A DNA stretch of 53,718 nt from Promethearchaeota archaeon. Its GTDB lineage: Archaea; Asgardarchaeota; Lokiarchaeia; Sigyniarchaeales; SOKP01. The notes beneath the pieces are model-generated. The model ran no database searches. It saw nothing but the letters and a program-made list of their open reading frames with translations, and was not told the DNA's origin. Position numbers and translations under genes: made by a program. The stretch spans positions 1 through 53,718 of the forward strand of contig JAGXNQ010000001.1 in NCBI GenBank assembly GCA_019894955.1, written 5' to 3'. Positions within the stretch are counted from its first letter, which is position 1, and every line of letters begins with the position of its first letter. Of the stretch, positions 8,731 through 47,920 are shown one piece after another.

Positions 8731-9480
8731 TTGTTAAATGAAATGAAAGCCATTATTTTATGTGCTGGTTATGGAACTCGAATGGAACCATACACGAAGC
8801 GATACCAAAAAGTCATGATTCCAATCCATGGTAAAGCAATTCTTGATTATCTAATCCAATCAATCAAAAAATCTGGAATTTCCGATTTTATTATCGTGGT
8901 CGGTTATAAGAAAGAGCAAATAATGAATCATCTTAAGGACGGAAGAAAGTTTGGTATAAGTGTAGAATATATAACCCAGGAAAAACTTAACGGCACTGGT
9001 GGAGCATTGTTAATATGTGAATCTTATATAAAGGACTCTCATTTTTTCTTGACTTGGGGGGACACTTTGGTTACACCTGGTATTTATAAAGAAGTGGTAA
9101 AACTCAGGGAAATCGAAAATGAGGATTTCATAATGGTTGCAAATCGCGTAGATGATCCTTATAAAGGTGCAGCAATATATCTCGAGGGAAATTATTGTAA
9201 ACAAATTATCGAAAAACCTGCAAGAGGTACATCTGATACTAATCTCAATAACGCAGGAATTTTTATTCTACAGGAAGATATTTTTGACATCTTAAAAACT
9301 CAAAAACCCTCAAAAAGAGGAGAAATAGAAGTCCCAGAGACGATAAGTAATGGAATTAAAAACTTAAATTGGAAAATAAAAGTTGTTCAAATGAGAAAAA
9401 ATGATTTTTATGCTGATTTCGGTGATAAGAAACAATTTGAAAACCTGAAGATTGATAAAAATTGGTTAAAATTATTTTGA
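8731..9480 (+). CDS. Sugar-phosphate nucleotidyltransferase (NTP_transferase fold)
   Basis: The N-terminus contains MKAIILCAGYGTRMEP...KVMIPIHGKAILDYLI (GxGTR motif). The ATG at 8743 is a more likely start than the TTG at 8731. The gene lies 6 nt after the GHMP kinase. Confidence 0.85.
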   Translation: MLNEMKAIILCAGYGTRMEPYTKRYQKVMIPIHGKAILDYLIQSIKKSGISDFIIVVGYKKEQIMNHLKDGRKFGISVEYITQEKLNGTGGALLICESYIKDSHFFLTWGDTLVTPGIYKEVVKLREIENEDFIMVANRVDDPYKGAAIYLEGNYCKQIIEKPARGTSDTNLNNAGIFILQEDIFDILKTQKPSKRGEIEVPETISNGIKNLNWKIKVVQMRKNDFYADFGDKKQFENLKIDKNWLKLF

Positions 9481-18512: not shown

Positions 18513-21500
18513 ATGTCAGATACAAGCAAAGATATGGAAGAATATTTTGCATTGATTCAGCAAAATGTAGATAACTGTTATGAAATTGCTGAAGAAGCCC
18601 GTCAGAAAGGTTTAGATCCTGAATTATTTGTAGAATCACCACAAGCAAAAGATCTAGCTGGAAGAGTAGAAAAACTTGTAGGTCCAGAAGGAATTGCTGA
18701 TGTAATCCGAAATTTAAAGAATCTGGGCAAATCTGATGATGAAATTGTGTTTCAAGTTGTTTCTGATATTTTGGAAAAAAAGTTAGGAAATATTGGGATT
18801 TTAGACGAAAGAGTGGAACGTGCTATTAGAGCAGGATTAGCAATAAAGACAATGGGGGTTGTTAGTGCTCCATTAGAAGGAATATCTAAAATTATCATTA
18901 GAAAAGATAATTATGGAAAATCTTATCTATCACTCTTTTTTGCGGGACCAATAAGGGCTGCTGGTGGTACTACTGCAGCTTTATGTGTGCTAATTGCAGA
19001 TTATGTAAGAAAGAAGTCAAATATCCCTAAGTATGAGGCTACTGAAGCAGAGATTGGACGATATGTGGAAGAAATTAAATTATATGATCGGAGAGTCCAT
19101 CTTCAATACCCTTCTTCAAATGATGAAATAAGATTCGCTGTTGAACATCTACCAATTGAAATTAATGGAGATTCGACTGAGGATGAGGAAGTTTCGGCTT
19201 TTCGGGATCTCCCCCGGGTTGATACGAATAAAATTCGAGGAGGTGCTTGTTTAGTGTTGAATGATGGGATACTTCTTAAAGCTCCAAAATTAATGAAGAT
19301 TGCTGCAAGCATGAATTTAGAAGGGTGGGAATGGTTAAAATCACTAAAAAAAATTTCTCAAAAAACAGAAACTTCGAAAAAAAATGAGAATATTAATCAA
19401 AACGAAATATCTCCAAATTCTAAATATGTTTCAGATATAATAGCGGGAAGACCTGTTTTTAGCCATCCTTCACGTATCGGAGGTCACCGAATTCGTTATG
19501 GTAGATCTAGAAACACAGGTCTTGCAGCTGCTGGTATGCATCCGGCGACAATGACTCTATTGGATAATTTTATAGCAATTGGTACTCAACTAAGAATAGA
19601 GCGCCCTGGGAAAAGTGCAAGTATTTGTCCTGTAAGCTCCATAGAGCCTCCAATAGTAAAATTGAAGGATGGAAGTGTGATTAGAGTTAAAACTAAGGAA
19701 AAAGCAAAACGTATTTTTCCAGAAGTAGAAAGTATACTCTTTTTAGGGGATATTTTGTTTGGTTTCGGAGAATTTGCAGAAAATAACCATAAATTAATCC
19801 CATCAGGTTATGTTGAAGAATGGTGGGCATTAGAATTAGAAAACGCTCTTCAAAAAACAGGAAATATACCTCCAAAACTAAAAATTTTCATACAAGACCC
19901 TTTTTCTAACGTTCCTTCAGCAGAAGATGCAATAAAATTAGCGTACAGTTTAAAAATCCCACTACACCCTTTTTATACAGATTATTGGGGAAATGTATCT
20001 ATAACTGAATTAGAAGTACTTCGAACGGCTATGAGTGAAGGTTTTGATCACTCAGAAAAGAAAATTTATTTGAAAAACGATCCCAAAATAAAAGAAATTT
20101 TAGAAAAGGCTTTTATTGTCCATTTGCTCAAGGATGGAGTTATTGAATTCAGTAATGCCAAGAATTTTATTTTTCAATCGCTTTTCGATCTTTTAAATTC
20201 AAATCATATTTCCTTGGAAGGTATTAATGATAGTTTTTCTTATTTTAAATTAAGATCTGGTCTTGAAATAAGGAATAAAGCCCCTTACTACATGGGGACT
20301 AGAATGGGACGACCAGAAAAATCTGAACGAAAATCAATGAAAGGCGTTCATTCATTGTTTCCATTAAGTGAAAGTGTTGGGAATCATCGATTAGTAGAAA
20401 AAGCTATAGAGCTTGGAACAATTAAAATTGACGCAGGTAGAAAAAAATGTCCTAATTGTAATTATGTTTCCCTTTTTAATAAATGTCCAAAATGTGGAAG
20501 TCATACAGAAGTACAAAAGATCTGTGTAAAATGTAAAAAAACATATTCTAAGAATAATGATAAATGCTCTCAATGCGGTCAAGCGTTAAGTTTCTCAAAG
20601 GAAGCATCTCTTAACTTTAAAAATTATATCAATACTGCTCTCGATTCATTAGGATTGACTCTACCTAAAAAATTTAAAGCGATTTTTGGATTAACCAATC
20701 AATTTAAGCTTCCTGAACCTATTGAGAAAGGTATATTAAGAGCAAAGAATGGTTTATTAGTATATAAAACGGCAGAGATACGATATGACGCTACTGACAT
20801 ACCATTAACCCATTTTAAACCTAAAGAAATTGGCACATCTATTAAAAAACTGAAGGAATTAGGATATGAATATGATTATCAAGGTAACCCATTAGAGGAA
20901 GCTGATCAAATAATAGAATTAAAAGTACAAGACGTTCTCTTATCGGAGGATTGTGCCAATTATTTTCTACGGCTTACGAAATTTTTAGATGAGGAGCTTG
21001 AAAGTTTTTATCAATTGAAGAGGTTTTATAATGTATCTGGTCTAGATGATTTAATTGGTCACTTGGTTGTTGGTTTAGCACCTCATACTAGTGCGGGCAT
21101 CATTGGTAGAATAATTGGTACTTCACCAGCAAGGTCTATTTATGCTCATCCTTATTGGCATGCTGCCAAGCGTCGTAATTGTGATGGCGATGAAGATGGT
21201 ATAATGCTTTTACTGGATCCATTGTTAAATTTTTCCAGATATTATTTACCTAGTAGGATTGGAGGGAGAATGGATGCTACGTTAGTAATTTCTACTAAGT
21301 TGGATCCTAATGAAATTGATGTGGAAGCACATAACATCGACACTTTGTACCGATATCCTTTAGAATTTTATGAAGCAACTCAAAATTTTGCATCACCACA
21401 AAAAGTTGAGGATATTATGAATTTAGTGAAAACTCGATTAGGCACAGAAAAGCAATACGAAGATATCGGATTTAATATTCCCACGGAGGATATTAATGAG

Positions 21501-21938
21501 GGCCCATTGATGACAGCATATAAAACTCATGAAACTATGGAAGAGAAGATTGAAGCTCAATTACATATTGCGAAAATTATCAAAGCTGTTGATGCAAAGA
21601 AAGTTGCTGAAAAAATTCTCTCTACACACTTCAATCCAGATATACTTGGGAATTTACGTAAATTTTCAGTTCAAGAGTTCAGATGTGTTAAATGTAATGA
21701 AAAATTTCGACGTCCTCCAATTTCTAATAATGGTAAATGTCCAAAATGTGGTAAAAAAGTGATTTTAACGGTAAATAGGGGAGGTATAGAGAAATATATT
21801 CCTAGAGCTCAAAAACTTTGCAAAGAATTCAATCTGGATCACTATACCGTGCAAAGAATGGAATTAATTGAACAATATGTGGAAAGTTTAACTAATAATC
21901 CAAAAATAAAACAGCAAAAATTATCAGATTTTTTCTGA
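18513..21938 (+). CDS. dp2: DNA polymerase II (PolD) large catalytic subunit DP2
   Basis: The length is 1141 aa. The N-terminus is MEEYFALIQ...AEEARQKGLDPE. Zn modules (CPNCN..CPKCG, CVKCK..CSQCG, CVKCNEKF..CPKCG) and the catalytic block NCDGDEDG are present. No intein-sized insertion is present. Confidence 0.95.
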   Translation: MSDTSKDMEEYFALIQQNVDNCYEIAEEARQKGLDPELFVESPQAKDLAGRVEKLVGPEGIADVIRNLKNLGKSDDEIVFQVVSDILEKKLGNIGILDERVERAIRAGLAIKTMGVVSAPLEGISKIIIRKDNYGKSYLSLFFAGPIRAAGGTTAALCVLIADYVRKKSNIPKYEATEAEIGRYVEEIKLYDRRVHLQYPSSNDEIRFAVEHLPIEINGDSTEDEEVSAFRDLPRVDTNKIRGGACLVLNDGILLKAPKLMKIAASMNLEGWEWLKSLKKISQKTETSKKNENINQNEISPNSKYVSDIIAGRPVFSHPSRIGGHRIRYGRSRNTGLAAAGMHPATMTLLDNFIAIGTQLRIERPGKSASICPVSSIEPPIVKLKDGSVIRVKTKEKAKRIFPEVESILFLGDILFGFGEFAENNHKLIPSGYVEEWWALELENALQKTGNIPPKLKIFIQDPFSNVPSAEDAIKLAYSLKIPLHPFYTDYWGNVSITELEVLRTAMSEGFDHSEKKIYLKNDPKIKEILEKAFIVHLLKDGVIEFSNAKNFIFQSLFDLLNSNHISLEGINDSFSYFKLRSGLEIRNKAPYYMGTRMGRPEKSERKSMKGVHSLFPLSESVGNHRLVEKAIELGTIKIDAGRKKCPNCNYVSLFNKCPKCGSHTEVQKICVKCKKTYSKNNDKCSQCGQALSFSKEASLNFKNYINTALDSLGLTLPKKFKAIFGLTNQFKLPEPIEKGILRAKNGLLVYKTAEIRYDATDIPLTHFKPKEIGTSIKKLKELGYEYDYQGNPLEEADQIIELKVQDVLLSEDCANYFLRLTKFLDEELESFYQLKRFYNVSGLDDLIGHLVVGLAPHTSAGIIGRIIGTSPARSIYAHPYWHAAKRRNCDGDEDGIMLLLDPLLNFSRYYLPSRIGGRMDATLVISTKLDPNEIDVEAHNIDTLYRYPLEFYEATQNFASPQKVEDIMNLVKTRLGTEKQYEDIGFNIPTEDINEGPLMTAYKTHETMEEKIEAQLHIAKIIKAVDAKKVAEKILSTHFNPDILGNLRKFSVQEFRCVKCNEKFRRPPISNNGKCPKCGKKVILTVNRGGIEKYIPRAQKLCKEFNLDHYTVQRMELIEQYVESLTNNPKIKQQKLSDFF

Positions 21939-39158: not shown

Positions 39159-41300
39159 ATGGTAATAATTCCTGAATCAGAACCAATAGAAGAAAAGAGA
39201 GAGAATTTAAGTAAAAGAGGTTTTTTAAATAATTTATTGCCAAGAGTCTTTAGAACTGAAGGAGATGTAGTAACTTTTGATCCTTCCAAGATAGAAGGTA
39301 GTATAATAAAAGAAACAGGTATAAACCCTGAATCTGCTAATGAATTAACGCAATTAGTTGTTCGAAGAATTATTTCTTCTGGAATTAAATTTCTTTCTGG
39401 ACCACATATTAGAGAAATTGTATGTTCTATTTTATCTGAAGAACATTATGAAGAGGCTCGAAAATTATATACTAGGATTGGAATGCCTTTAATGGATTAT
39501 GAAGCAATTTTAGAAAAAGGTATTAATGAAAATGCTAATCAAGACATGAATCCTGAAAGTATTCACCATTGGGCAGCAAATCGAATTTCAGACGAATATG
39601 CTCTTCTGAGAATTTTAGATTCTGAAGAAGCTCATGCTCATTTATACGGTGATCTTCATATTCACATGCTTAGGTATTTTGATTTGAGACCTTTTTGTCA
39701 GGAATGGGATCCAAGAATGATTTTGGAACATGGATTACCCCCTGTAGACAGTTGGGCACATTGTAGTAAGTCTGGACCCGCGGGAAGTTTACGGGTTGCA
39801 GTAACACATCTAGCAAAGTGGTTAGGGATTATTCAAGGTGAATTTTCAGGTGGGCAAGGATATGATTATATAACGACCTTTCTAGCACCATATGCAAGAG
39901 GATTGTCGAAGAGAGAAATTGAACAATCAATGCAATGTTTAATTTTTGAAACAAACCAAATTTTCGCTGCACGTGGAGGGCAAGTCCCATTCACATCAAT
40001 ATCTTGTACACCTACTGTTCCTGATGGATTAATTAAGATTCCGGCTATTGGTCCTCATGGAAAAATAAATGGTACCTACGGGGATTATAAGGTTGAATGC
40101 TTGGAACTATTTGATGCCTTAACCGATGTTTATATTCAAGGGGATCATAATGGAAAACTTTTTGCATTTCCGAAACATGAAATCAAAATTAAGAAAGAAT
40201 GGTTAAAAGAATTTGAACCTTCTTACTTGAAAGTTATGGAAGAAGTTGCAACAATGGGTACACCATATTTTCTTAATATGTGTCCAGATTGGATGCCTGA
40301 TGAAATTCATAGTCAATGTTGCCGAAAATTTTTAAGTGGTAATCAAATCATTAAACAATGCATTTTAGATCCAGAGAAAAGGAAAAATGCTAATATTTGG
40401 GAAAACTACGTGACAATAGGCTCTTTACAGAGTGTGAGCTTAAATTTACCAAGATATGCATATCTTTCTAATAACGAGGAGGATTATTTTCATATTTTAG
40501 ATGAAAAAATGGAATTAGCTGCACGTATCTTAAGAAAAAAATGGAATTTAATGGAAAAAAGATTAAAAACAGGTCATTTACCCCTATGTAGTGGTAAAAT
40601 TAACGGTGAATCGATATTTAAATTGAAAGATCAAAACCTTTCCATTGGTTTTACGGGGTTGAATGAAGCTGTTCAGAGTTTGACTAATTTTGAATTGCAT
40701 GAAAACGATATTGGTTATTCTTTAGGAAAAAGAATTCTTGAATTTATGGTAGCTAAATGCAATACCATGACAGAAAGAGATGGAAAATCATATTCTCTTT
40801 GGGAACAGCCTAGTGAATCAACCTCGAATAGATTAGCAAGGTTAGATTTAAAACACTTTCCAAAAAAAGCGATTGTTCAATCCAAGGGTAAATCCGCATA
40901 CTATACAAATTCAAGTCACTTGCGATATGATGCTAATATCCCATTATCCGAGAGAATTAGGAAACAAGGAGACTACCATCCTATTGTTGAAGGTGGCGTA
41001 ATAACACATATTTGGATGGGTGAACAAAAACCAGACATCCAAGGGCTCTGGGAATTAACTAAAAATATTTGTCTTAATACAAATACGGCTTACTTTGCAT
41101 ATACTCCTGATTTTACTTTCTGTCCTCATTGTAGAAAGATGTTCCGAGGTGGAGATTTTAAATGCCCCCAATGTCTTTCTGAAGATGTCAAGGTTTATTC
41201 TCGTATTACAGGATATTACAGCCAAGTTAATAGGTACAACCCAGGGAAAAAGGCGGAATGGGAAGCAAGAAAACGAGAAAATATATACAATATTTCCTAA
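39159..41300 (+). CDS. nrdD: Anaerobic ribonucleoside-triphosphate reductase (class III, NrdD)
   Basis: N-terminal ATP-cone-like segment, C-terminal Zn site CPHC...CPQC and glycyl-radical loop SRITGYYS. The length is 713 aa. Confidence 0.95.
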   Translation: MVIIPESEPIEEKRENLSKRGFLNNLLPRVFRTEGDVVTFDPSKIEGSIIKETGINPESANELTQLVVRRIISSGIKFLSGPHIREIVCSILSEEHYEEARKLYTRIGMPLMDYEAILEKGINENANQDMNPESIHHWAANRISDEYALLRILDSEEAHAHLYGDLHIHMLRYFDLRPFCQEWDPRMILEHGLPPVDSWAHCSKSGPAGSLRVAVTHLAKWLGIIQGEFSGGQGYDYITTFLAPYARGLSKREIEQSMQCLIFETNQIFAARGGQVPFTSISCTPTVPDGLIKIPAIGPHGKINGTYGDYKVECLELFDALTDVYIQGDHNGKLFAFPKHEIKIKKEWLKEFEPSYLKVMEEVATMGTPYFLNMCPDWMPDEIHSQCCRKFLSGNQIIKQCILDPEKRKNANIWENYVTIGSLQSVSLNLPRYAYLSNNEEDYFHILDEKMELAARILRKKWNLMEKRLKTGHLPLCSGKINGESIFKLKDQNLSIGFTGLNEAVQSLTNFELHENDIGYSLGKRILEFMVAKCNTMTERDGKSYSLWEQPSESTSNRLARLDLKHFPKKAIVQSKGKSAYYTNSSHLRYDANIPLSERIRKQGDYHPIVEGGVITHIWMGEQKPDIQGLWELTKNICLNTNTAYFAYTPDFTFCPHCRKMFRGGDFKCPQCLSEDVKVYSRITGYYSQVNRYNPGKKAEWEARKRENIYNIS

Positions 41301-41914: not shown

Positions 41915-43132
41915 TTGGTTGCATATTTCTATATTCTATTAAACGAATTTAGAGCAATAATGTTAAAAGAAGGACTTACTAAAAAGGAAATAACTGAAAT
42001 ACTTGAAGGGAAGCTTAAACAAGATTTTTCTTACGATTCGGGATCAATATTAGGATCGATGTGTACGGATCCCCATGATTTTGGGAAGGAAATCTACACG
42101 AAATATATTTCTAAAAACCTTGGTGATCCAGGTTTATTTTTAGGAACAACAAAATTAGAAGAAGAACTCACTAGAGAAATTGGTGATTTATTCAACGGCA
42201 AAAATATAGTCGGAACATTTACTACGGGAGGATCAGAAGCGAATATTATAGCTATGAGAATTGCTAAGAAATTACATCCTGAAATAAATAAACCAGAAGT
42301 AGTCCTACCTATCTCTTCTCACATCTCTTTTGATAAAGCGGCAGATCTTTTAGGTATAAAATTGAGGAAAGCTAAGATAAAGGAGAATTATGAATTAGAT
42401 ATCGCCCATTATGCGAGTTTAATTAATAAAAATACTTGTGGAGTAGTAGGGATTGCTGGAACAACATCATTAGGATTAATTGATCCGATAAAAGAAATAG
42501 GAAATTTGGTACATGATAAAGACATCTTTTTTCATGTAGATGCTGCTTTTGGAGGTTTTATTTTACCTTTTCTAAAGGATATCGGTTACAAAGTTCCTTT
42601 ATGGGATTTTTCTGTTAAAGAAGTAGACTCTATTACTGCAGATCCTCATAAAATGGGTCTTGGTATTATTCCCTCTGGGGGATTTTTCTTAAAAGATGAA
42701 TCAATTTTAGAAAAGACGGGATTTGAAATTCCATATTTAGCAGGAGGGAATTTTAAACATTTTCATATCGTCGGCACACGACCTGGAGCTTCAGTAATTG
42801 CTTTTTGGGCTATAATGAAATATTTAGGGAGGGATGGGTTTACAAAAATGGTCCAAAACTGCATGCGGAATACTGAATATTTAGCTAAAAAAATTTCAGA
42901 AATTCAAGGGATTAAACTTGCCGCTCAACCAGTTCTTAATTTAGTTGGGATTACAACCGAAGATAATGAATCAATATGTGAAATTGATAATAAATTAAGG
43001 GAAAAGAATTGGATGTTGGGTAAATTTATAGATTTTAATCTAATTAGAGCAGTAATGATGCCTCATGTTAAATATGAACATTTGAATCGATTTATAGAGG
43101 ATCTTGAAGAAATTTTAAGCAGCTCAAAGTAA
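41915..43132 (+). CDS. mfnA: PLP-dependent tyrosine/aspartate decarboxylase (MfnA type)
   Basis: Blocks FTTGGSEANIIAMR, FHVDAAFGGF and SITADPHKMG (PLP lysine) are present. The probable real start is the ATG at 41960 (MLKEGLTKKEI), not the TTG at 41915. Confidence 0.85.
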   Translation: MVAYFYILLNEFRAIMLKEGLTKKEITEILEGKLKQDFSYDSGSILGSMCTDPHDFGKEIYTKYISKNLGDPGLFLGTTKLEEELTREIGDLFNGKNIVGTFTTGGSEANIIAMRIAKKLHPEINKPEVVLPISSHISFDKAADLLGIKLRKAKIKENYELDIAHYASLINKNTCGVVGIAGTTSLGLIDPIKEIGNLVHDKDIFFHVDAAFGGFILPFLKDIGYKVPLWDFSVKEVDSITADPHKMGLGIIPSGGFFLKDESILEKTGFEIPYLAGGNFKHFHIVGTRPGASVIAFWAIMKYLGRDGFTKMVQNCMRNTEYLAKKISEIQGIKLAAQPVLNLVGITTEDNESICEIDNKLREKNWMLGKFIDFNLIRAVMMPHVKYEHLNRFIEDLEEILSSSK

Positions 43133-43201: not shown

Positions 43202-43987
43202 TTGAAAAAAAGAATGGCGAAAGATAAGAAAAAGTCATTGGGAATTAAAACAACCAGATATTTTACAAAAACGTGCTTAAATTGCAATTTTGAATATCCA
43301 AATTGGTTTACAAATTGTCCAAAATGTGGTATAGCCTGGGACTTTGTTGAAGCAGAAAAGACTAGTGGTACAAAGGATGCCCTAAAGAAAACAATTAAAA
43401 TCATAGTTAAAATAACCGAAGAAGATTTTGATGAAGCTCTTGAGCGAGTTCAATTGAATTTTTCTGCTGATCAAGGAATTTCATGGTATCAAATGGAAAT
43501 GATAAGTAAAACTGATTATTTCGTTGCAGAACTTGCGGATGTGCCCACAGGATCTACTATCATCTACTTTATTGAGGTGCGATTAAAAAATGGAGAGATC
43601 ATAGTAGAAAATAATGATGGTAATTATTATTATTATATTGTGGGATCACCTTATGAGGATACTTCAAGCTCATCAATTAATTCCAAAAAAATTGAAAATC
43701 AAGAAATTTCGAAAAAAGTAGAGATTCCAGAAAAACCGAAAAAACAAGAAGTAATTACTCGTCCTATTAAACAAGAATATTTCAAACCAAAGACTGAAAC
43801 CCCAAAAATGCCCCATCGAGTTTCTAAAATTCAGACTCCTCAAAATCTAAAAGATTATCGAGCTGAAGATAATATTACGATATTTGGTAATCCTCAAACT
43901 GAAATCGACCCTGATCTTAAATTATGTCCTCACTGTAATTCAAAAATAAAGAAAATGTGGAATACCTGTCCTATTTGTGGAAAATAA
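43202..43987 (+). CDS. Hypothetical protein with Zn ribbons at both termini flanking a beta-rich domain and a K/E/P-rich linker
   Basis: The N-terminal ribbon is CLNCNFEYPNWFTNCPKCG and the C-terminal ribbon is CPHCNSKIKKMWNTCPICGK. The central part WYQMEMISKTDYFVAELADVPTGSTIIYFIEVRLKNGEIIVENNDGNYYYYIV looks like an Ig/CBM-type beta sandwich. The probable start is the ATG at 43214. Confidence 0.6.
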   Translation: MKKRMAKDKKKSLGIKTTRYFTKTCLNCNFEYPNWFTNCPKCGIAWDFVEAEKTSGTKDALKKTIKIIVKITEEDFDEALERVQLNFSADQGISWYQMEMISKTDYFVAELADVPTGSTIIYFIEVRLKNGEIIVENNDGNYYYYIVGSPYEDTSSSSINSKKIENQEISKKVEIPEKPKKQEVITRPIKQEYFKPKTETPKMPHRVSKIQTPQNLKDYRAEDNITIFGNPQTEIDPDLKLCPHCNSKIKKMWNTCPICGK

Positions 43988-44005
43988 ACATTAGGTATTA
44001 AAATT

Positions 44006-45751
44006 TTATACTAATTTATTCCCACATTTGTTACAAAACGCGTAATCAGAAGATAATATTGCCCCACATTGTGAACATGTTAAAAATTCTTTAGGTTGAG
44101 GTTCTTCCTCTATACTAGGTTTTGGACTTGATGTTATTACTGTGAACGAATTAGATTCTGGTTCAATATTTGCTACATTTGGAATAATTCTCAAAGTAGA
44201 TGATTCTTCTATCTTTGGTTCCTTGCTTGAAGCGAAAGATACGAATGGGGCTGATTCTTCAATTTTCACATTTTCCGTTTTTTGTGTTAATGCTTGGAAT
44301 AACGAAGGTGTGCTCATAGTTGCGTCTGATTTAGGAAAAACTACTTCTTGTTCCGGACCCCCCTTTTTCTTTTCTTTTTTCAGTTTTTCTTTTTTACTTT
44401 GTTTCATTTCCTCAATCAATCTATCTTGCTTTTCTTTCTCCTCTTTAAATTTAATTTCTTTTTCCTTTTTCTTCTTATCTTTATCAAGCTTTTTCTTTTC
44501 TTTTTTAGATATAATTGTTTCTGGCATATAGTCAACTAATGATTGAGAAGGTGGAGAAATAGTTGTGGAACTTGGTGCTGGTTCAAATGTCATTGAGGCA
44601 GGTTTGGGTTTTATTGGTTCCTCTTTTTTTGAAACAATAAACGGTACAGTTTTCGTAGTGGTGGTTTGAGGTGAAATTGTTCCTTTATGAGATTTAAATT
44701 CTTCTGGAGTGGGGGCAGGAACAGGTATATTAGGAGAAAAAGGAACGGTTTTTGGTTTATATGATTCTTTTATTGGTCCTTGAGATAATTTTGAAGATTG
44801 CGTTGTTTTTTGTGGCATTTTTGCTTCTTGCGAGAAAATTTCTTCTGGTGTTTTAAATTCAAATTCAGCAGGATCTGGAATGGAAACTTCGGGTATGGAT
44901 GTAAATTCAAATGAAGGTATTGGTTTTGTTTTTGTTTCAATTATTGGTGTTGTTTTTGTTTCAATTATTGGTGTTGTTTTTGTTTCAATTATTGGTTCTG
45001 GCACGGGAGGTGCAGCATATTTGATTTCTGGAATTATTCTTACGGGTTCTGGTATGGGAGGTGCGTCATATTCGATTTCTGGAACTATTCTTACGGGTTC
45101 TGGTACGGGAGGTGCAGCAAAATCATTAGTCTCTAATAGAAATGAACTTCTTTCCTCATTACTACTTACCGGGATTTGACCAGGATTATATACAATATTG
45201 TTTAATAGTTGTGCTGGAACTCCTTGACCAATCATCAAGCAAGCTAAGATATAGAAACAATCTCCAACGCCGTCCCCTGTTTTAGCAGAAGTCTCCATAT
45301 AATAGAGGTTAAAATCTCGGGTAAAATTATTTATTTCTTCAAGTGAAACCATACGTTGATCAGTTAAATCGCTTTTATTTCCCACAAGCAACAATGGAAT
45401 TTCGGTTTTTAGATTAGCTCTCACTTCTTCAATCCATTGAGGTAAATGTTCAAAGCTTACTGCATTGGTAAGATCAAATACTAAGACTGCTCCAAGTGAA
45501 CCTCTATAATACATTGGACGGATTGAGCTAAAGCGTTCTTGACCTCCTGTGTCCCAAAGTTGGAGTTTGGCTTTGATAGGTCCTTCTATGGTATTAATGG
45601 TTATTGTCTTTACGTGAAAGTCAACTCCAATTGTCATTTTATAATCTTCTGTAAAAAAATCCTTGGAAAAGCGTAAAGTTAGAGCGGTTTTACCTACGCC
45701 GCCATCCCCTACGACGATTGATTTAAACAAGTAGTCATATTCTTCTGACAT
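44006..45751 (-). CDS. Rab-like small GTPase with a ~380-aa repeat-containing disordered tail and a C-terminal Zn ribbon
   Basis: G motifs are G1 GDGGVGKTA, G2 YKMTIGVDF, G3 WDTGGQERF, G4 GNKSDL and G5 ETSAKTG. The tail has repeats APPVPEPVRIVPEIEYD x2.5 and IIETKTTP x3, a KEKEKK-rich block and the final CSQCGAILSSDYAFCNKCGNKL. There is no CAAX or CC motif. Confidence 0.85.
   Translation of the reverse strand: MSEEYDYLFKSIVVGDGGVGKTALTLRFSKDFFTEDYKMTIGVDFHVKTITINTIEGPIKAKLQLWDTGGQERFSSIRPMYYRGSLGAVLVFDLTNAVSFEHLPQWIEEVRANLKTEIPLLLVGNKSDLTDQRMVSLEEINNFTRDFNLYYMETSAKTGDGVGDCFYILACLMIGQGVPAQLLNNIVYNPGQIPVSSNEERSSFLLETNDFAAPPVPEPVRIVPEIEYDAPPIPEPVRIIPEIKYAAPPVPEPIIETKTTPIIETKTTPIIETKTKPIPSFEFTSIPEVSIPDPAEFEFKTPEEIFSQEAKMPQKTTQSSKLSQGPIKESYKPKTVPFSPNIPVPAPTPEEFKSHKGTISPQTTTTKTVPFIVSKKEEPIKPKPASMTFEPAPSSTTISPPSQSLVDYMPETIISKKEKKKLDKDKKKKEKEIKFKEEKEKQDRLIEEMKQSKKEKLKKEKKKGGPEQEVVFPKSDATMSTPSLFQALTQKTENVKIEESAPFVSFASSKEPKIEESSTLRIIPNVANIEPESNSFTVITSSPKPSIEEEPQPKEFLTCSQCGAILSSDYAFCNKCGNKLV
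44921..44992. repeat. Coding tandem repeat, 3 x 24 nt (tggtgttgtttttgtttcaattat) encoding (IIETKTTP)3 on the minus strand
   Basis: Units at 44921, 44945 and 44969. Units 2 and 3 are identical and unit 1 differs at 2 positions. Confidence 0.9.
44994..45119. repeat. Coding tandem repeat, ~2.5 x 51 nt encoding the APP(V/I)PEPVRI(V/I)PEI(E/K)Y(D/A) repeats
   Basis: Units at 44994-45044 and 45045-45095, with a partial unit at 45096-45119. A few substitutions occur between units. Confidence 0.9.
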
Positions 45752-45956: not shown

Positions 45957-46856
45957 TTATTTCTTTATAGTTTTGCTTAATTCAGCTGCTTCTTTATTAA
46001 GATCATTGTTTTCAACCCATTCTTTTAAATCCTCTAATTGATCTGCAAAATAATCATAAGAATGATCTTTATTTGGATAAATAGCATTTATCACTTCATT
46101 CTTATATTGATTTAATGCTTCAATTATAGATTCTCTTACATTTCCAAAGTACTTTAAAAATTTTGGCTTGAAATCTGTGAAAATACCTAACATATCATGC
46201 AATACGAGAATTTGTCCATCACAATGTGATCCCGCACCTATCCCTATTGTTGGAATATCTATTTCTTTAGTAATAAGTTCTGCGATTTGCCAAGGTATAC
46301 TTTCTAATACTATTGAAAAAACACCCGCTTTTTGAAGATTTTTTGCATCTAATATTAGATGTTTTGCATTTTCAATTGTTTTTCCTTGTACCATAAATCC
46401 TCCAAACCTGTATATTTTTTGAGGTGTAAGACCAATATGACCCATTACTTCAATATCAGCATCTATCATTCTCTCGATCGTGGTACAAATTTCAGTTCCT
46501 CCTTCAACTTTTACAGCTTCTGCACCTCCTTCTTGGATGAATCTACCGGCGTTTTTCACAGCATCTGTTTTATTTATTTTATAAGATAAAAAGGGCATAT
46601 CTCCAACGATTAAAGCATTTGAGACAGCTCTACTTACAGCCTTAGTATGATGAATCATTTCATCCATCGAGACTGATAACGTATTCTGATATCCTAGCAT
46701 AACCATTGCTAATGAATCTCCCACAAGAATTAAGTCTATATCACAAGCATCGACTATTTTAGCTAGAGCATAATCATAAGCAGTAATAGTTACTATTTTT
46801 TCTCCATTTTGCTTTTTTTCTAAAATATTCTTTATCGTAACTTTTTTTAGGGACAT
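45957..46856 (-). CDS. panB: 3-methyl-2-oxobutanoate hydroxymethyltransferase (ketopantoate hydroxymethyltransferase)
   Basis: Blocks ITAYDYALAKIVD...ILVGDSLAMVMLGY, VGDMPFLSY, VKVEGG and GHIGLTPQ are present. A ~35-aa C-terminal extension follows. Confidence 0.92.
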   Translation of the reverse strand: MSLKKVTIKNILEKKQNGEKIVTITAYDYALAKIVDACDIDLILVGDSLAMVMLGYQNTLSVSMDEMIHHTKAVSRAVSNALIVGDMPFLSYKINKTDAVKNAGRFIQEGGAEAVKVEGGTEICTTIERMIDADIEVMGHIGLTPQKIYRFGGFMVQGKTIENAKHLILDAKNLQKAGVFSIVLESIPWQIAELITKEIDIPTIGIGAGSHCDGQILVLHDMLGIFTDFKPKFLKYFGNVRESIIEALNQYKNEVINAIYPNKDHSYDYFADQLEDLKEWVENNDLNKEAAELSKTIKK

Positions 46857-46963: not shown

Positions 46964-47920
46964 TCAAGTAAAAGCAGTTTCCAATATCTTTTGAAACTTT
47001 TCTAGTTCAATTTTTATCTCATTTATCATATTTGCTGGCATACTTACTTCTATATAAAAAATATTATCTCCTTCTTTTGAAGATACTGAGAACATTTTTA
47101 CATATTCCGTTTTTTCTTCTGATATTGATACTCTATCATCAATATTCACGTTATTATCCTTAAGTCTCTGAAAAAACTCAAGATCATCATTAATTTTGGT
47201 ACTAATAATCTCCTCAAATGCTCTTGTATCCATAGTTTCTTTATAATGATCTGCTATTACAATCCCTGATTCGGTATATATTATTGCATGATTACATCCA
47301 AATTTATCGACTAGGATTTTTAATTCCTTACTACTTTGTTCCAAACTTAGCAACTTGTTTAGAGAATAGGATATAGCTTTTGAAATGGAAGAAATATCAT
47401 AGTAGGAAGTGTGAAAGAATTTAAATTTCATATCTTGATTTTGAGATGCGATTAAATTTTCCAACATTATACCACGATCTTGAAAATCTGTATCATTTTT
47501 AAATCTCGGATCATGCTTATTAAAACATACTACAACATCATTCGTGTAATCCATTCCTCTATAAATATTTAAAAGATCATATAAATATTGCATTACTTCA
47601 TCAAATTTCAATTCATCTTGTATATCAATGAGAAAATAGAGGTAATCAGTTTCAGAAAAATATATAGGATTATTGACGTAAATCTTTCTAAATTTTTTCT
47701 GGCCTCCCATATCCCAGATGTTAATCCTATAGGTTTCAAGGAATTTAAAAGAACTATAATCAATTTTTATAGTTGGTTTTAAATTTTTGATTCGTTCATA
47801 AAAGTTATATTTCTGACGTAAAGCGATTAATGCACTACTTTTCCCAGCATTGTCTAAACCAGCAATAACTAATTTAAACTCTTTATAATTATGTTTTATA
47901 CCTGACATTTTCAAGAACAA
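46964..47920 (-). CDS. Arf/Sar-like small GTPase with a C-terminal roadblock-like domain (Rag/Gtr-like architecture)
   Basis: G motifs are G1 AGLDNAGKSS (Sar1/Arf-type P-loop), G3 WDMGGQ and G4 FNKHD. The C-terminal ~130 aa carries LKILVDKFGCNHAIIYTESGIVIADHYKE...AFEEIIS...FYIEVSMP, an alpha-beta-beta pattern typical of roadblock domains. Confidence 0.75.
   Translation of the reverse strand: MFLKMSGIKHNYKEFKLVIAGLDNAGKSSALIALRQKYNFYERIKNLKPTIKIDYSSFKFLETYRINIWDMGGQKKFRKIYVNNPIYFSETDYLYFLIDIQDELKFDEVMQYLYDLLNIYRGMDYTNDVVVCFNKHDPRFKNDTDFQDRGIMLENLIASQNQDMKFKFFHTSYYDISSISKAISYSLNKLLSLEQSSKELKILVDKFGCNHAIIYTESGIVIADHYKETMDTRAFEEIISTKINDDLEFFQRLKDNNVNIDDRVSISEEKTEYVKMFSVSSKEGDNIFYIEVSMPANMINEIKIELEKFQKILETAFT

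Follow-up and report, generated by a model that had tools for sequence, protein, structure and literature searches.

How is a Rab-like GTPase positioned in an Asgard archaeal cell? The localisation of these proteins is unsettled in research on how eukaryotic membrane trafficking arose, and under the published view, in which they have neither a C-terminal extension nor terminal cysteines nor a basic region, they would be unlocalised or placed by unknown protein contacts. The question is raised by a convergent gene pair in a 53,718-nucleotide (nt) stretch of contig JAGXNQ010000001.1 from a Promethearchaeota archaeon (assembly GCA_019894955.1; the whole stretch, AT-rich with ~30% GC, is called the window here). 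One gene encodes a Rab-like GTPase with a long tail that ends in a zinc ribbon, the other a beta-sandwich protein with a ribbon near each end. Judged from sequence, the GTPase, with its linked partner, is a real, conserved and unannotated variant of the Asgard Rab-like GTPases: one highly conserved Rab-like lineage of Lokiarchaeia carries a long extension, a basic segment, a motif array and a terminal four-cysteine (Cys4) module, and the partner gene lies next to that of the GTPase, in convergent orientation, in each of the 139 testable loci of the main clade. We regard the pair as being of moderate interest, since the family contradicts the published generalisation that Asgard Rab-likes lack a C-terminal extension, and since a defined protein pair, its motifs and its terminal module offer a testable handle on Rab-like localisation and partners in cultured Lokiarchaeia.

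The tailed GTPase and its terminal ribbon

The open reading frames (ORFs) of the pair lie at 43202..43987 on the plus strand (261 amino acids, aa) and at 44006..45751 on the minus strand (581 aa). Coordinates re-read from the window agree with the tail-to-tail layout and the 18-nt spacing given in an earlier note on this DNA. The features of the GTPase gene are as follows.

44006..45751, minus: GTPase gene, 581 aa, comprising a Rab-like G domain, a tail of ~380 aa and a zinc ribbon (ORF list, Pfam)
45218..45751, minus: predicted Rab-like G domain, aa 1-178 (Pfam Ras, PDB relatives, conservation)
44993..45121, minus: three [YF]xAPP[VI]PEP motifs at 17-aa spacing, aa 211-253, corresponding to a 51-bp repeat (Tandem Repeats Finder, orthologue motif counts)
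44924..44995, minus: three copies of PIIETKT[TK], a 24-bp tandem repeat of polymorphic copy number (Tandem Repeats Finder, assembly comparison)
44510..44542, minus: SLVDYMPETII motif; DY[ML]P in 66/72 orthologues, D407 invariant, Y408, M409 and P410 nearly invariant
44375..44506, minus: K/E-rich basic helix, aa 416-459, 44 residues in the AlphaFold2 (AF2) model, with a predicted local distance difference test score (pLDDT) of up to 90
44282..44305, minus: SLFQALTQ motif; SLFQ.L in 60/72, with L484, F485 and L488 invariant
44162..44194, minus: LRIIPNVANIE motif; LRIIPN in 69/72, with L520, I523 and P524 invariant
44021..44077, minus: C-terminal zinc ribbon, aa 559-577, CSQCGAILSSDYAFCNKCG (orthologue conservation, AF2, Pfam scores near the cut-off)
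43988..44005, no strand: tail-to-tail spacer of 18 nt between both stop codons, ACATTAGGTATTAAAATT

The motif counts cover 72 full-length orthologues, and the invariance calls come from an alignment of 62.

The Rab-type G domain that had been read from the sequence is borne out by a Pfam Ras match over aa 10-170 (E=1.4e-52) and by the best solved relatives, which are Rabs. By similarity rank, on which kinship was judged, Rab30 comes first (2.2e-45, 44% identity over 180 aligned residues), followed by Rab8A, Rab1A/B and Ypt1, these top relatives lying at E ~1e-45 to 1e-43; the crystal structure of a Thorarchaeota Rab (7EZB) matches at E=1.3e-42. The G1-G5 motifs and the catalytic Gln can be read directly (GDGGVGKT, DTGGQE, NKSD, SAK). 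Compared by eye with the RabF1-F5 consensus IGVDF, KLQIW, RFRSIT, YYRGA and LVYDIT (as used in PMC4915359), the domain has IGVDF exactly, KLQLW at 4/5, RFSSIR at 4/6, YYRGS at 4/5 and LVFDLT at 4/6 positions. Most of its positions are invariant among the 62 orthologues. Since the G motifs are intact and the mean pairwise distance of the domain (0.12) lies below those of the flanking enzymes PanB (0.26) and MfnA (0.32), the G domain is a constrained and presumably active switch. Its homologues all bear Promethearchaeota or Lokiarchaeota-type labels of metagenome-assembled genomes, in keeping with an Asgard Rab-like protein.

The remainder of the protein departs from what has been described. Archaeal Rab-like proteins were reported to have no C-terminal cysteines, no extended C-terminus and no polybasic or other membrane signal, and it was proposed that their localisation might use protein-protein contacts (Surkont and Pereira-Leal, PMC4915359). 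Likewise, the Rabs of Thorarchaeota and of strain MK-D1 were found to lack a C-terminal extension, and the small GTPases of MK-D1 all to lack terminal cysteines (Tran et al., PMC10933270). The tailed GTPase shares with these proteins the Rab-like G domain and differs from them by its long extension, its basic segment and its four terminal cysteines, so that the description of a short C-terminus without terminal cysteines or polybasic region does not fit the family. Supplementary Figs 4 and 5 of the same study label the MK-D1 proteins WP_147661765.1 and WP_147662073.1 as "GXzn" and "Gzn", respectively (Tran et al. 2024, PMC10933270). The printed G-domain sequence of WP_147661765.1 closely resembles the tailed family, and this protein evidently has the same architecture. 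Since the supplement gives the label "GXzn" without discussion, the architecture had been noticed before and not analysed.

The likeness to eukaryotic Rabs such as Rab1/Ypt1, Rab8 and Rab30 extends beyond the G domain and its RabF-type motifs, as a C-terminal extension with a basic stretch and cysteines at its end is topologically like a hypervariable region followed by a Cys motif. The eukaryotic tail, however, has ~30-40 aa, compared with ~380 aa with conserved motifs here, and eukaryotic Rabs end in a CC, CXC or CAAX prenylation motif, whereas the tailed GTPase ends in a four-cysteine ribbon (...CNKCGNKLV). No prenylatable Cys motif (CC, CXC, CCXX or CAAX) is present in the terminus ...CSQCGAILSSDYAFCNKCGNKLV; its cysteines belong to the CxxC-x10-CxxC ribbon, and none of them stands at a CAAX, CC or CXC position. 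Long or basic C-terminal regions that follow a small G domain and set its localisation are known from Arl13b, K-Ras4B and Rit. The tails are not homologous, and those proteins use coiled coils, palmitoylation, prenylation and basic clusters rather than a zinc ribbon.

How the tail is conserved bears on what it may do. A search with the tail alone (aa 179-581) retrieved 363 proteins, nearly all of 528-604 aa and with Ras domains, which align along the whole tail at 40-47% identity. Two to four copies of the [YF]xAPP[VIL]PE motif occur in 72/72 full-length species representatives, and EFKTPEEI and Y.P...PF form further conserved islands amid variable sequence. In the AF2 model, computed from the 62-sequence alignment, the tail is disordered except for helix 302-308, helix 416-459 and the ribbon at 556-581 (pLDDT ~73-83). 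Because the full tail aligns in 363 proteins while its motif islands are invariant and the model is disordered, the tail appears to be selected for its short motifs and not for a fold. The flexible tether proposed before is thus retained in part: the tail is long (~380 aa) and disordered, but rather than a plain linker it is a conserved motif array with a predicted charged helix of 44 residues. The lysine- and glutamate-rich block that the earlier note had pointed out is likewise there, spanning 49 aa from aa 415 with 25 K+R against 13 D+E. No curated NCBIfam model exists for the tail or for the partner.

Conservation of the terminal ribbon, on which the earlier proposal depended, is nearly complete: it is kept in 79/79 species-representative and 59/60 metagenome orthologues. 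Its consensus, C.xCG..LS.DY.FCNKCG, includes conserved residues other than cysteine. Among 223 small-GTPase-like ORFs in ~165 loci, 115 have a C-terminal ribbon, all of them of the tailed family, and 108 have none. The ribbon scores just below the cut-offs of two Pfam models, Zn_ribbon_3 and Zn_Ribbon_1, the two scores being 23.8 vs 27 and 23.2 vs 25.

The two-ribbon partner and its linkage to the GTPase

The partner ORF opens with TTG at 43202. Because homologues all begin with M[AG]KDKKK and public gene callers give 257 aa (MAKDKKK), the ATG at 43214 is most likely the start. The features of the partner gene are given below.

43214..43987, plus: partner gene, 257 aa, two zinc ribbons (ORF list, homologue starts, gene callers)
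43274..43330, plus: N-terminal zinc ribbon, aa 25-43, CLNCNFEYPNWFTNCPKCG; Y-P-N-W-F-T and four Cys invariant in 52 sequences
43385..43639, plus: predicted CBM/Ig-like beta-sandwich of seven strands, a conserved domain of ~85 residues (AF2 residues 58-142, pLDDT 70-84)
43652..43897, plus: variable disordered linker (pLDDT <50 over residues 147-208; poorly conserved, variable in length)
43925..43981, plus: C-terminal zinc ribbon, aa 242-260, CPHCNSKIKKMWNTCPICG, after a conserved TIFG..QT.IDPDLK (alignment, Pfam DZR)

The partner is itself well conserved: 372 homologues were found at E<=0.001, the 120th of which is still 52% identical over its full length. A basic N-terminus (KDKKK..GIKTTRYFTK) precedes the first ribbon, and the invariant consensus reads K..GIKT.RY.TK.C..C...YPNWFT.CP.C..W at the N-terminal and IFG..Q...DP.L..C..C.SKIK..W..CPICG at the C-terminal end. 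The beta-sandwich claimed previously was recovered as a seven-stranded fold, with low model confidence outside residues 58-142. In a Foldseek search of PDB, the carbohydrate-binding module CBM56 (5t7a) was the best match (E=4e-4, 83 aligned columns, root-mean-square deviation 2.3 Å, target TM-score 0.68), with FN3 domains, N-terminal amylase domains and the Ig-like domain of peptidylarginine deiminase close behind. The domain thus has a CBM56-like or E-set sandwich fold, with FN3 and Ig domains almost equally good matches, and the model indicates a generic CBM/Ig-like domain.

The profile search, run over 1.84 billion representatives, gave only 127 matches, which form four groups: the partner family proper; a divergent subfamily at 32-40% identity with Promethearchaeota or Lokiarchaeota labels; a paralogous family without the N-terminal ribbon, consisting of sandwich, long linker, "IIPYNPF" motif and C-terminal ribbon; and repeat domains of giant proteins with the Pfam labels CBM_56, DUF7743, DUF6209 and GlgE_dom_N_S. 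Members of the paralogous family (P0278, P0280, P0285, P0290, P0304) carry the longer motif "IIPYNPF..DG...QSFS.II", and Pfam sees only their ribbon. NCBIfam gives the partner family no name, nor does a profile search of PDB sequences, where only marginal ribbon matches were obtained. Identities as Mss4, ArfGAP, ArvC or an adaptin ear were considered and rejected, as neither Pfam/NCBIfam nor profile or Foldseek searches supported them. For Mss4/Dss4, Pfam gave no match and none stood among the top 50 Foldseek PDB matches; moreover, Mss4/Dss4 builds one zinc site from two distant CxxC pairs, whereas each ribbon here has a self-contained four-cysteine site.

The earlier note had described one shared module with CxxC-x11-CxxCG spacing in both proteins. 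The spacing is x10 instead, CxxC-x10-CxxCG in all three ribbons. The three agree in fold class and cysteine spacing, but beyond Cys and Gly they share almost no residues: LS.DY.F is invariant in the GTPase ribbon, YPNWFT and SKIKK.W in those of the partner. CxxC-x10-CxxC also occurs in NrdD (39159-41300, plus) and in the PolD large subunit DP2 (18513-21938, plus) of the window. A specific ribbon-to-ribbon similarity was accordingly rejected, and since the likeness is one of class and its spacing recurs in NrdD and PolD, the ribbon type, a generic fold, is itself no evidence of the common docking target once suggested. Pfam PF13240, PF13248 and PF12773 (DZR) have the same two CxxC knuckles at 10-residue spacing, and the GTPase ribbon fits the generic C..CG......FC..CG.kl; the partner exceeds the DZR cut-off (28.2 bits vs 27.3). 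Membership of those families is a matter of fold alone, with no function assigned to them, whereas the three ribbons here are distinct and individually conserved. Two further candidates were tried. The RanBP2/NZF ubiquitin-binding finger fits in spacing and was rejected, since neither its defining Asn, four residues past the first knuckle, nor the preceding Trp is present and Pfam gave no match for it. A "Y(F)KPK" motif common to both proteins was dropped, as it occurs in only 9-10/79 partners and, in its strict form, in 16/72 GTPases.

The linkage of the two genes is tight. A scan of one genome per species, limited by its search pattern to close relatives, gave 97 loci, of which 80 were examined. 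In 79/79 testable loci the next gene downstream, on the opposite strand, is that of the tailed GTPase, with a spacer of 6-113 nt; the 80th locus ends 95 bp past the partner gene and could not be scored. An independent metagenome set yielded the same adjacent and convergent arrangement in 60/60 testable main-clade loci, so the co-occurrence of the pair that the earlier note had asked about holds throughout the main clade, and neither of the two sequence-level refutations named there was borne out. The genes on either side of the pair are less constant, MfnA being adjacent upstream in 52/74 loci and PanB downstream in 54/69.

In the divergent subfamily the GTPase lies 3.5-5.5 kb upstream of the partner in divergent orientation at four of five loci (L087, L089, L091, L093), and at the fifth (L088) no tailed GTPase was found within 6 kb of the partner. 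The divergent-clade GTPases have the same architecture of G domain, proline-rich disordered tail, poly-K run and ribbon. The basic segment is kept in kind and not in place: main-clade proteins have a K/E helix ~100 aa ahead of the ribbon, divergent-clade proteins a poly-K run immediately in front of it. Because the GTPase is still 3.5-5.5 kb away in 4/5 divergent loci, the pairing has outlasted at least one rearrangement, and strict adjacency is a feature of the main clade. Taken together, the module appears to be a vertically inherited gene pair, found in the searches made only in Lokiarchaeia-type (Promethearchaeota) genomes and metagenome contigs.

As to the surroundings in the divergent subfamily (L087-L091, L093), the partner stands beside a GIFT/ABC_transp_aux-domain gene at all loci and beside GH2 and HAD-type hydrolase genes at most. 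GH20, heparinase-like and sugar-transporter genes occur at some of them, a glycan context not seen near the main clade. A 475-aa gene of L087 (296-1723, minus) has a plain Ras-type G domain, yet its precomputed Pfam field reads '-'; because of this clear case, '-' in these tables is unreliable as a sign of domain absence.

What the pair may do

Starting from the observed architecture, conservation, linkage and repeat polymorphism, we infer a docked Rab-like switch whose tail bears motifs and whose partner shares its location, each functional step being conditional; this is the reading we favour, tentatively and at somewhat less than an even chance. The ribbon and the basic segment would form a localisation element that fixes the GTPase at a partner protein or at an anionic membrane surface, doing the job of the hypervariable region and the prenyl groups of eukaryotic Rabs. 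A membrane-anchoring role in place of prenylation may be envisaged from the basic stretches and by analogy. The disordered tail would allow the G domain to explore its surroundings within tens of nanometres, its motifs might recruit other factors, with the [YF]xAPP[VI]PE copies as a multivalent array, and the two-ribbon partner would be an adaptor or regulator acting at the site that holds the GTPase. We favour this since the G motifs are intact, the tail motifs conserved and, as an array, subject to copy-number turnover, the ribbon constant and the basic segment kept, and since the linkage is tighter than that of the flanks.

Precedent is a further reason. The proposal of protein contacts by Surkont and Pereira-Leal points the same way, and ArvA, a GTPase of haloarchaeal vesiculation, acts together with ArvC, a Zn-ribbon protein encoded next to it that affects vesicle output (PMC10927574). 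In both cases an archaeal small GTPase is conserved beside a Zn-ribbon protein. ArvA of the euryarchaeal ArvA-ArvB-ArvC system, however, is Arf-like, with an N-terminal amphipathic helix, no tail and a co-directional operon, whereas the GTPase described here is Rab-like and tailed, its gene is convergent with that of the partner, and the GTPase carries a ribbon of its own. Neither protein of the pair has a Pfam match to DUF2072 (ArvC) or DUF2073 (ArvB).

Several points weigh against a docked switch with a co-localised partner. To our knowledge, no lipid binding is known for zinc ribbons of the Pfam type at issue, and ribbons with basic stretches fit nucleic-acid binding equally well. The structure models of the GTPase and the partner are both of monomers, neither of a complex. 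As the genes are convergent, they are not co-transcribed, and a spacer of 6-113 nt offers rearrangements so little room that the two genes could stay adjacent even without selection. Mirror-tree comparison gave r=0.90 (partial 0.80) for partner and tail, and 0.85 (0.75) for partner and MfnA; because MfnA matches the partner nearly as well as the tail does, there is no specific co-evolution signal. Asgard GFP (green fluorescent protein) fusions expressed in HeLa cells, including Thor-Rab and none of the tailed family, showed no membrane targeting (PMC10933270).

Some of these points are what one would see if the GTPase and its partner were functionally unrelated and stood side by side because the gene order of a slowly rearranging region had been passed down, which we hold to be possible and on the whole doubtful. 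Many genomes share the syntenic block NrdD-MazG-MfnA-partner-GTPase-PanB-Rag-like GTPase, and since the flanking MfnA and PanB are themselves largely syntenic, the linkage may in part reflect inherited gene order. The convergent, non-operonic arrangement with its very short spacer and the lack of a specific co-evolution signal fit here too, as does the divergent clade, where the partner stands beside GH2, GIFT-domain and hydrolase genes and the GTPase is several genes off or, in L088, missing from the 6 kb around it. On the other hand, adjacency amounts to 100% of the 139 testable loci, compared with ~70-78% for either flank, the genes stay within 5.5 kb in 4/5 divergent loci after inversion or insertion, and the two families come out almost equal in clusters (372 vs 363), from the same kind of genomes.

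The partner could also be a regulator of the G domain, a GTPase-activating protein (GAP), a guanine nucleotide exchange factor or a chaperone (compare the zinc fingers of ArfGAPs, ArvC and Mss4) instead of a co-docked adaptor. The invariant Arg15 and the aromatic-rich, invariant ribbon knuckles suggest a specific protein interface, a GAP role was suggested for ArvC by its authors (PMC10927574), and from the absence of the switch I arginine in the Rab paralogues of MK-D1 a need for GAPs was inferred (Tran et al., PMC10933270 supplement). We nevertheless consider a regulator unlikely, as the partner has no Pfam/NCBIfam match to ArfGap, DUF2072, Mss4 or TBC, its top 50 Foldseek PDB matches are CBM, FN3 and amylase domains with neither Mss4 nor a GAP among them, and the profile search of PDB sequences, as noted above, is confined to marginal ribbon hits.

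A still lower probability attaches to nucleic-acid or ribosome binding by the ribbons and basic stretches, which would couple the GTPase switch to RNA, DNA or translation and not to membranes. The combination of small zinc ribbons and Lys-rich, aromatic sequence is typical of archaeal RNA- and DNA-binding proteins. Some homologues are annotated as "predicted nucleic-acid-binding Zn-ribbon protein" or "RPABC4/Spt4", and there are weak profile matches to the RadA N-terminal zinc ribbon; these annotations, however, are automatic and the matches far under the cut-offs. The G domain, moreover, is nearest to trafficking Rabs and not to translation GTPases, and a long tail of proline motifs is atypical of nucleic-acid-binding proteins. 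Finally, that the sandwich is a true carbohydrate-binding module engaged in glycan handling, with the GTPase nearby by chance, is very improbable: CBM56 is the best fold match, relatives found by hidden Markov models are labelled CBM_56, CBM53 or GlgE N/S, and the divergent-clade partner gene lies beside GH2 and at some loci near GH20, heparinase-like and sugar-transporter genes, but the fold likeness is a generic one, for which FN3 and Ig domains reach almost the same scores, the partner has no signal peptide or transmembrane segment and two cytoplasmic-type ribbons, and no glycan genes lie near the main-clade pair.

Returning to the docked switch, it could be carried one step further, into a conjecture to which, taken as a whole, we give the least credence of all. 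The tail and terminal ribbon would then be an archaeal counterpart, possibly a forerunner, of the Rab hypervariable region and its di-cysteine anchor. An ancestral Rab-like switch would have found its place through a basic segment and a Cys4 ribbon that docked on a membrane-associated partner; the second CxxC knuckle would later have become the prenylated Cys motif, and the two-ribbon protein would have been a docking or escort factor of a pre-prenylation Rab cycle.

Neighbouring genes and repeat turnover

The pair sits between the MfnA and PanB genes, and a second small GTPase is encoded two genes away.

41915-43132, plus: MfnA-type PLP (pyridoxal phosphate)-dependent decarboxylase, flanking the pair
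45957-46856, minus: PanB, ketopantoate hydroxymethyltransferase, flanking the pair
46964-47920, minus: second small GTPase, 318 aa, with a Gtr1/RagA- and Arf-like G domain

Both flanking enzymes plausibly belong to coenzyme A/pantothenate synthesis, a role that for MfnA we assume from general knowledge. The 318-aa Rag-like GTPase has a C-terminal extension of ~130 aa, and its position is kept in many related loci. A scan for bacterial-type promoters and terminators, which is not designed for archaea, found no terminator-like sites.

Within the tail, Tandem Repeats Finder reported a 24-bp unit present 3.3 times at 98% identity (44918-44996), encoding the three PIIETKT[TK] copies, and a 51-bp unit present 2.5 times at 88% identity (44994-45119), encoding the 17-aa unit. 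Of the two repeats, both called near-identical and recently expanded in the earlier note, the 8-aa one agrees with that description; the 17-aa unit does not, at 88% identity and with a motif that is old and family-wide. The 8-aa repeat is thus recent, while the 17-aa unit carries an old motif with copy-number turnover.

The suspected length polymorphism is present. Public assemblies of the same population carry two copies (L001) and about one copy (L002) of the 24-bp unit, compared with three in the window. The GTPase genes of the three differ only within nt 661-832, a tract that also holds a 6-bp indel and six substitutions in the first 51-bp unit, and the partner gene is identical in all of them. 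An exact-sequence look-up of the 581-aa GTPase returned no match, the same-population assemblies encoding repeat variants of 573 and 569 aa. Since the repeat tracts do not reach the length of a sequencing read, assembly collapse is an unlikely cause of these differences. In several other lineages the proline-motif units underwent independent duplication or homogenisation, with two identical units in L008, four copies in L015 and three identical units in L077. Identical units of 19-20 aa occur in some of these genes (L008, L015 and L077 GTPase genes, downstream of position 8800).

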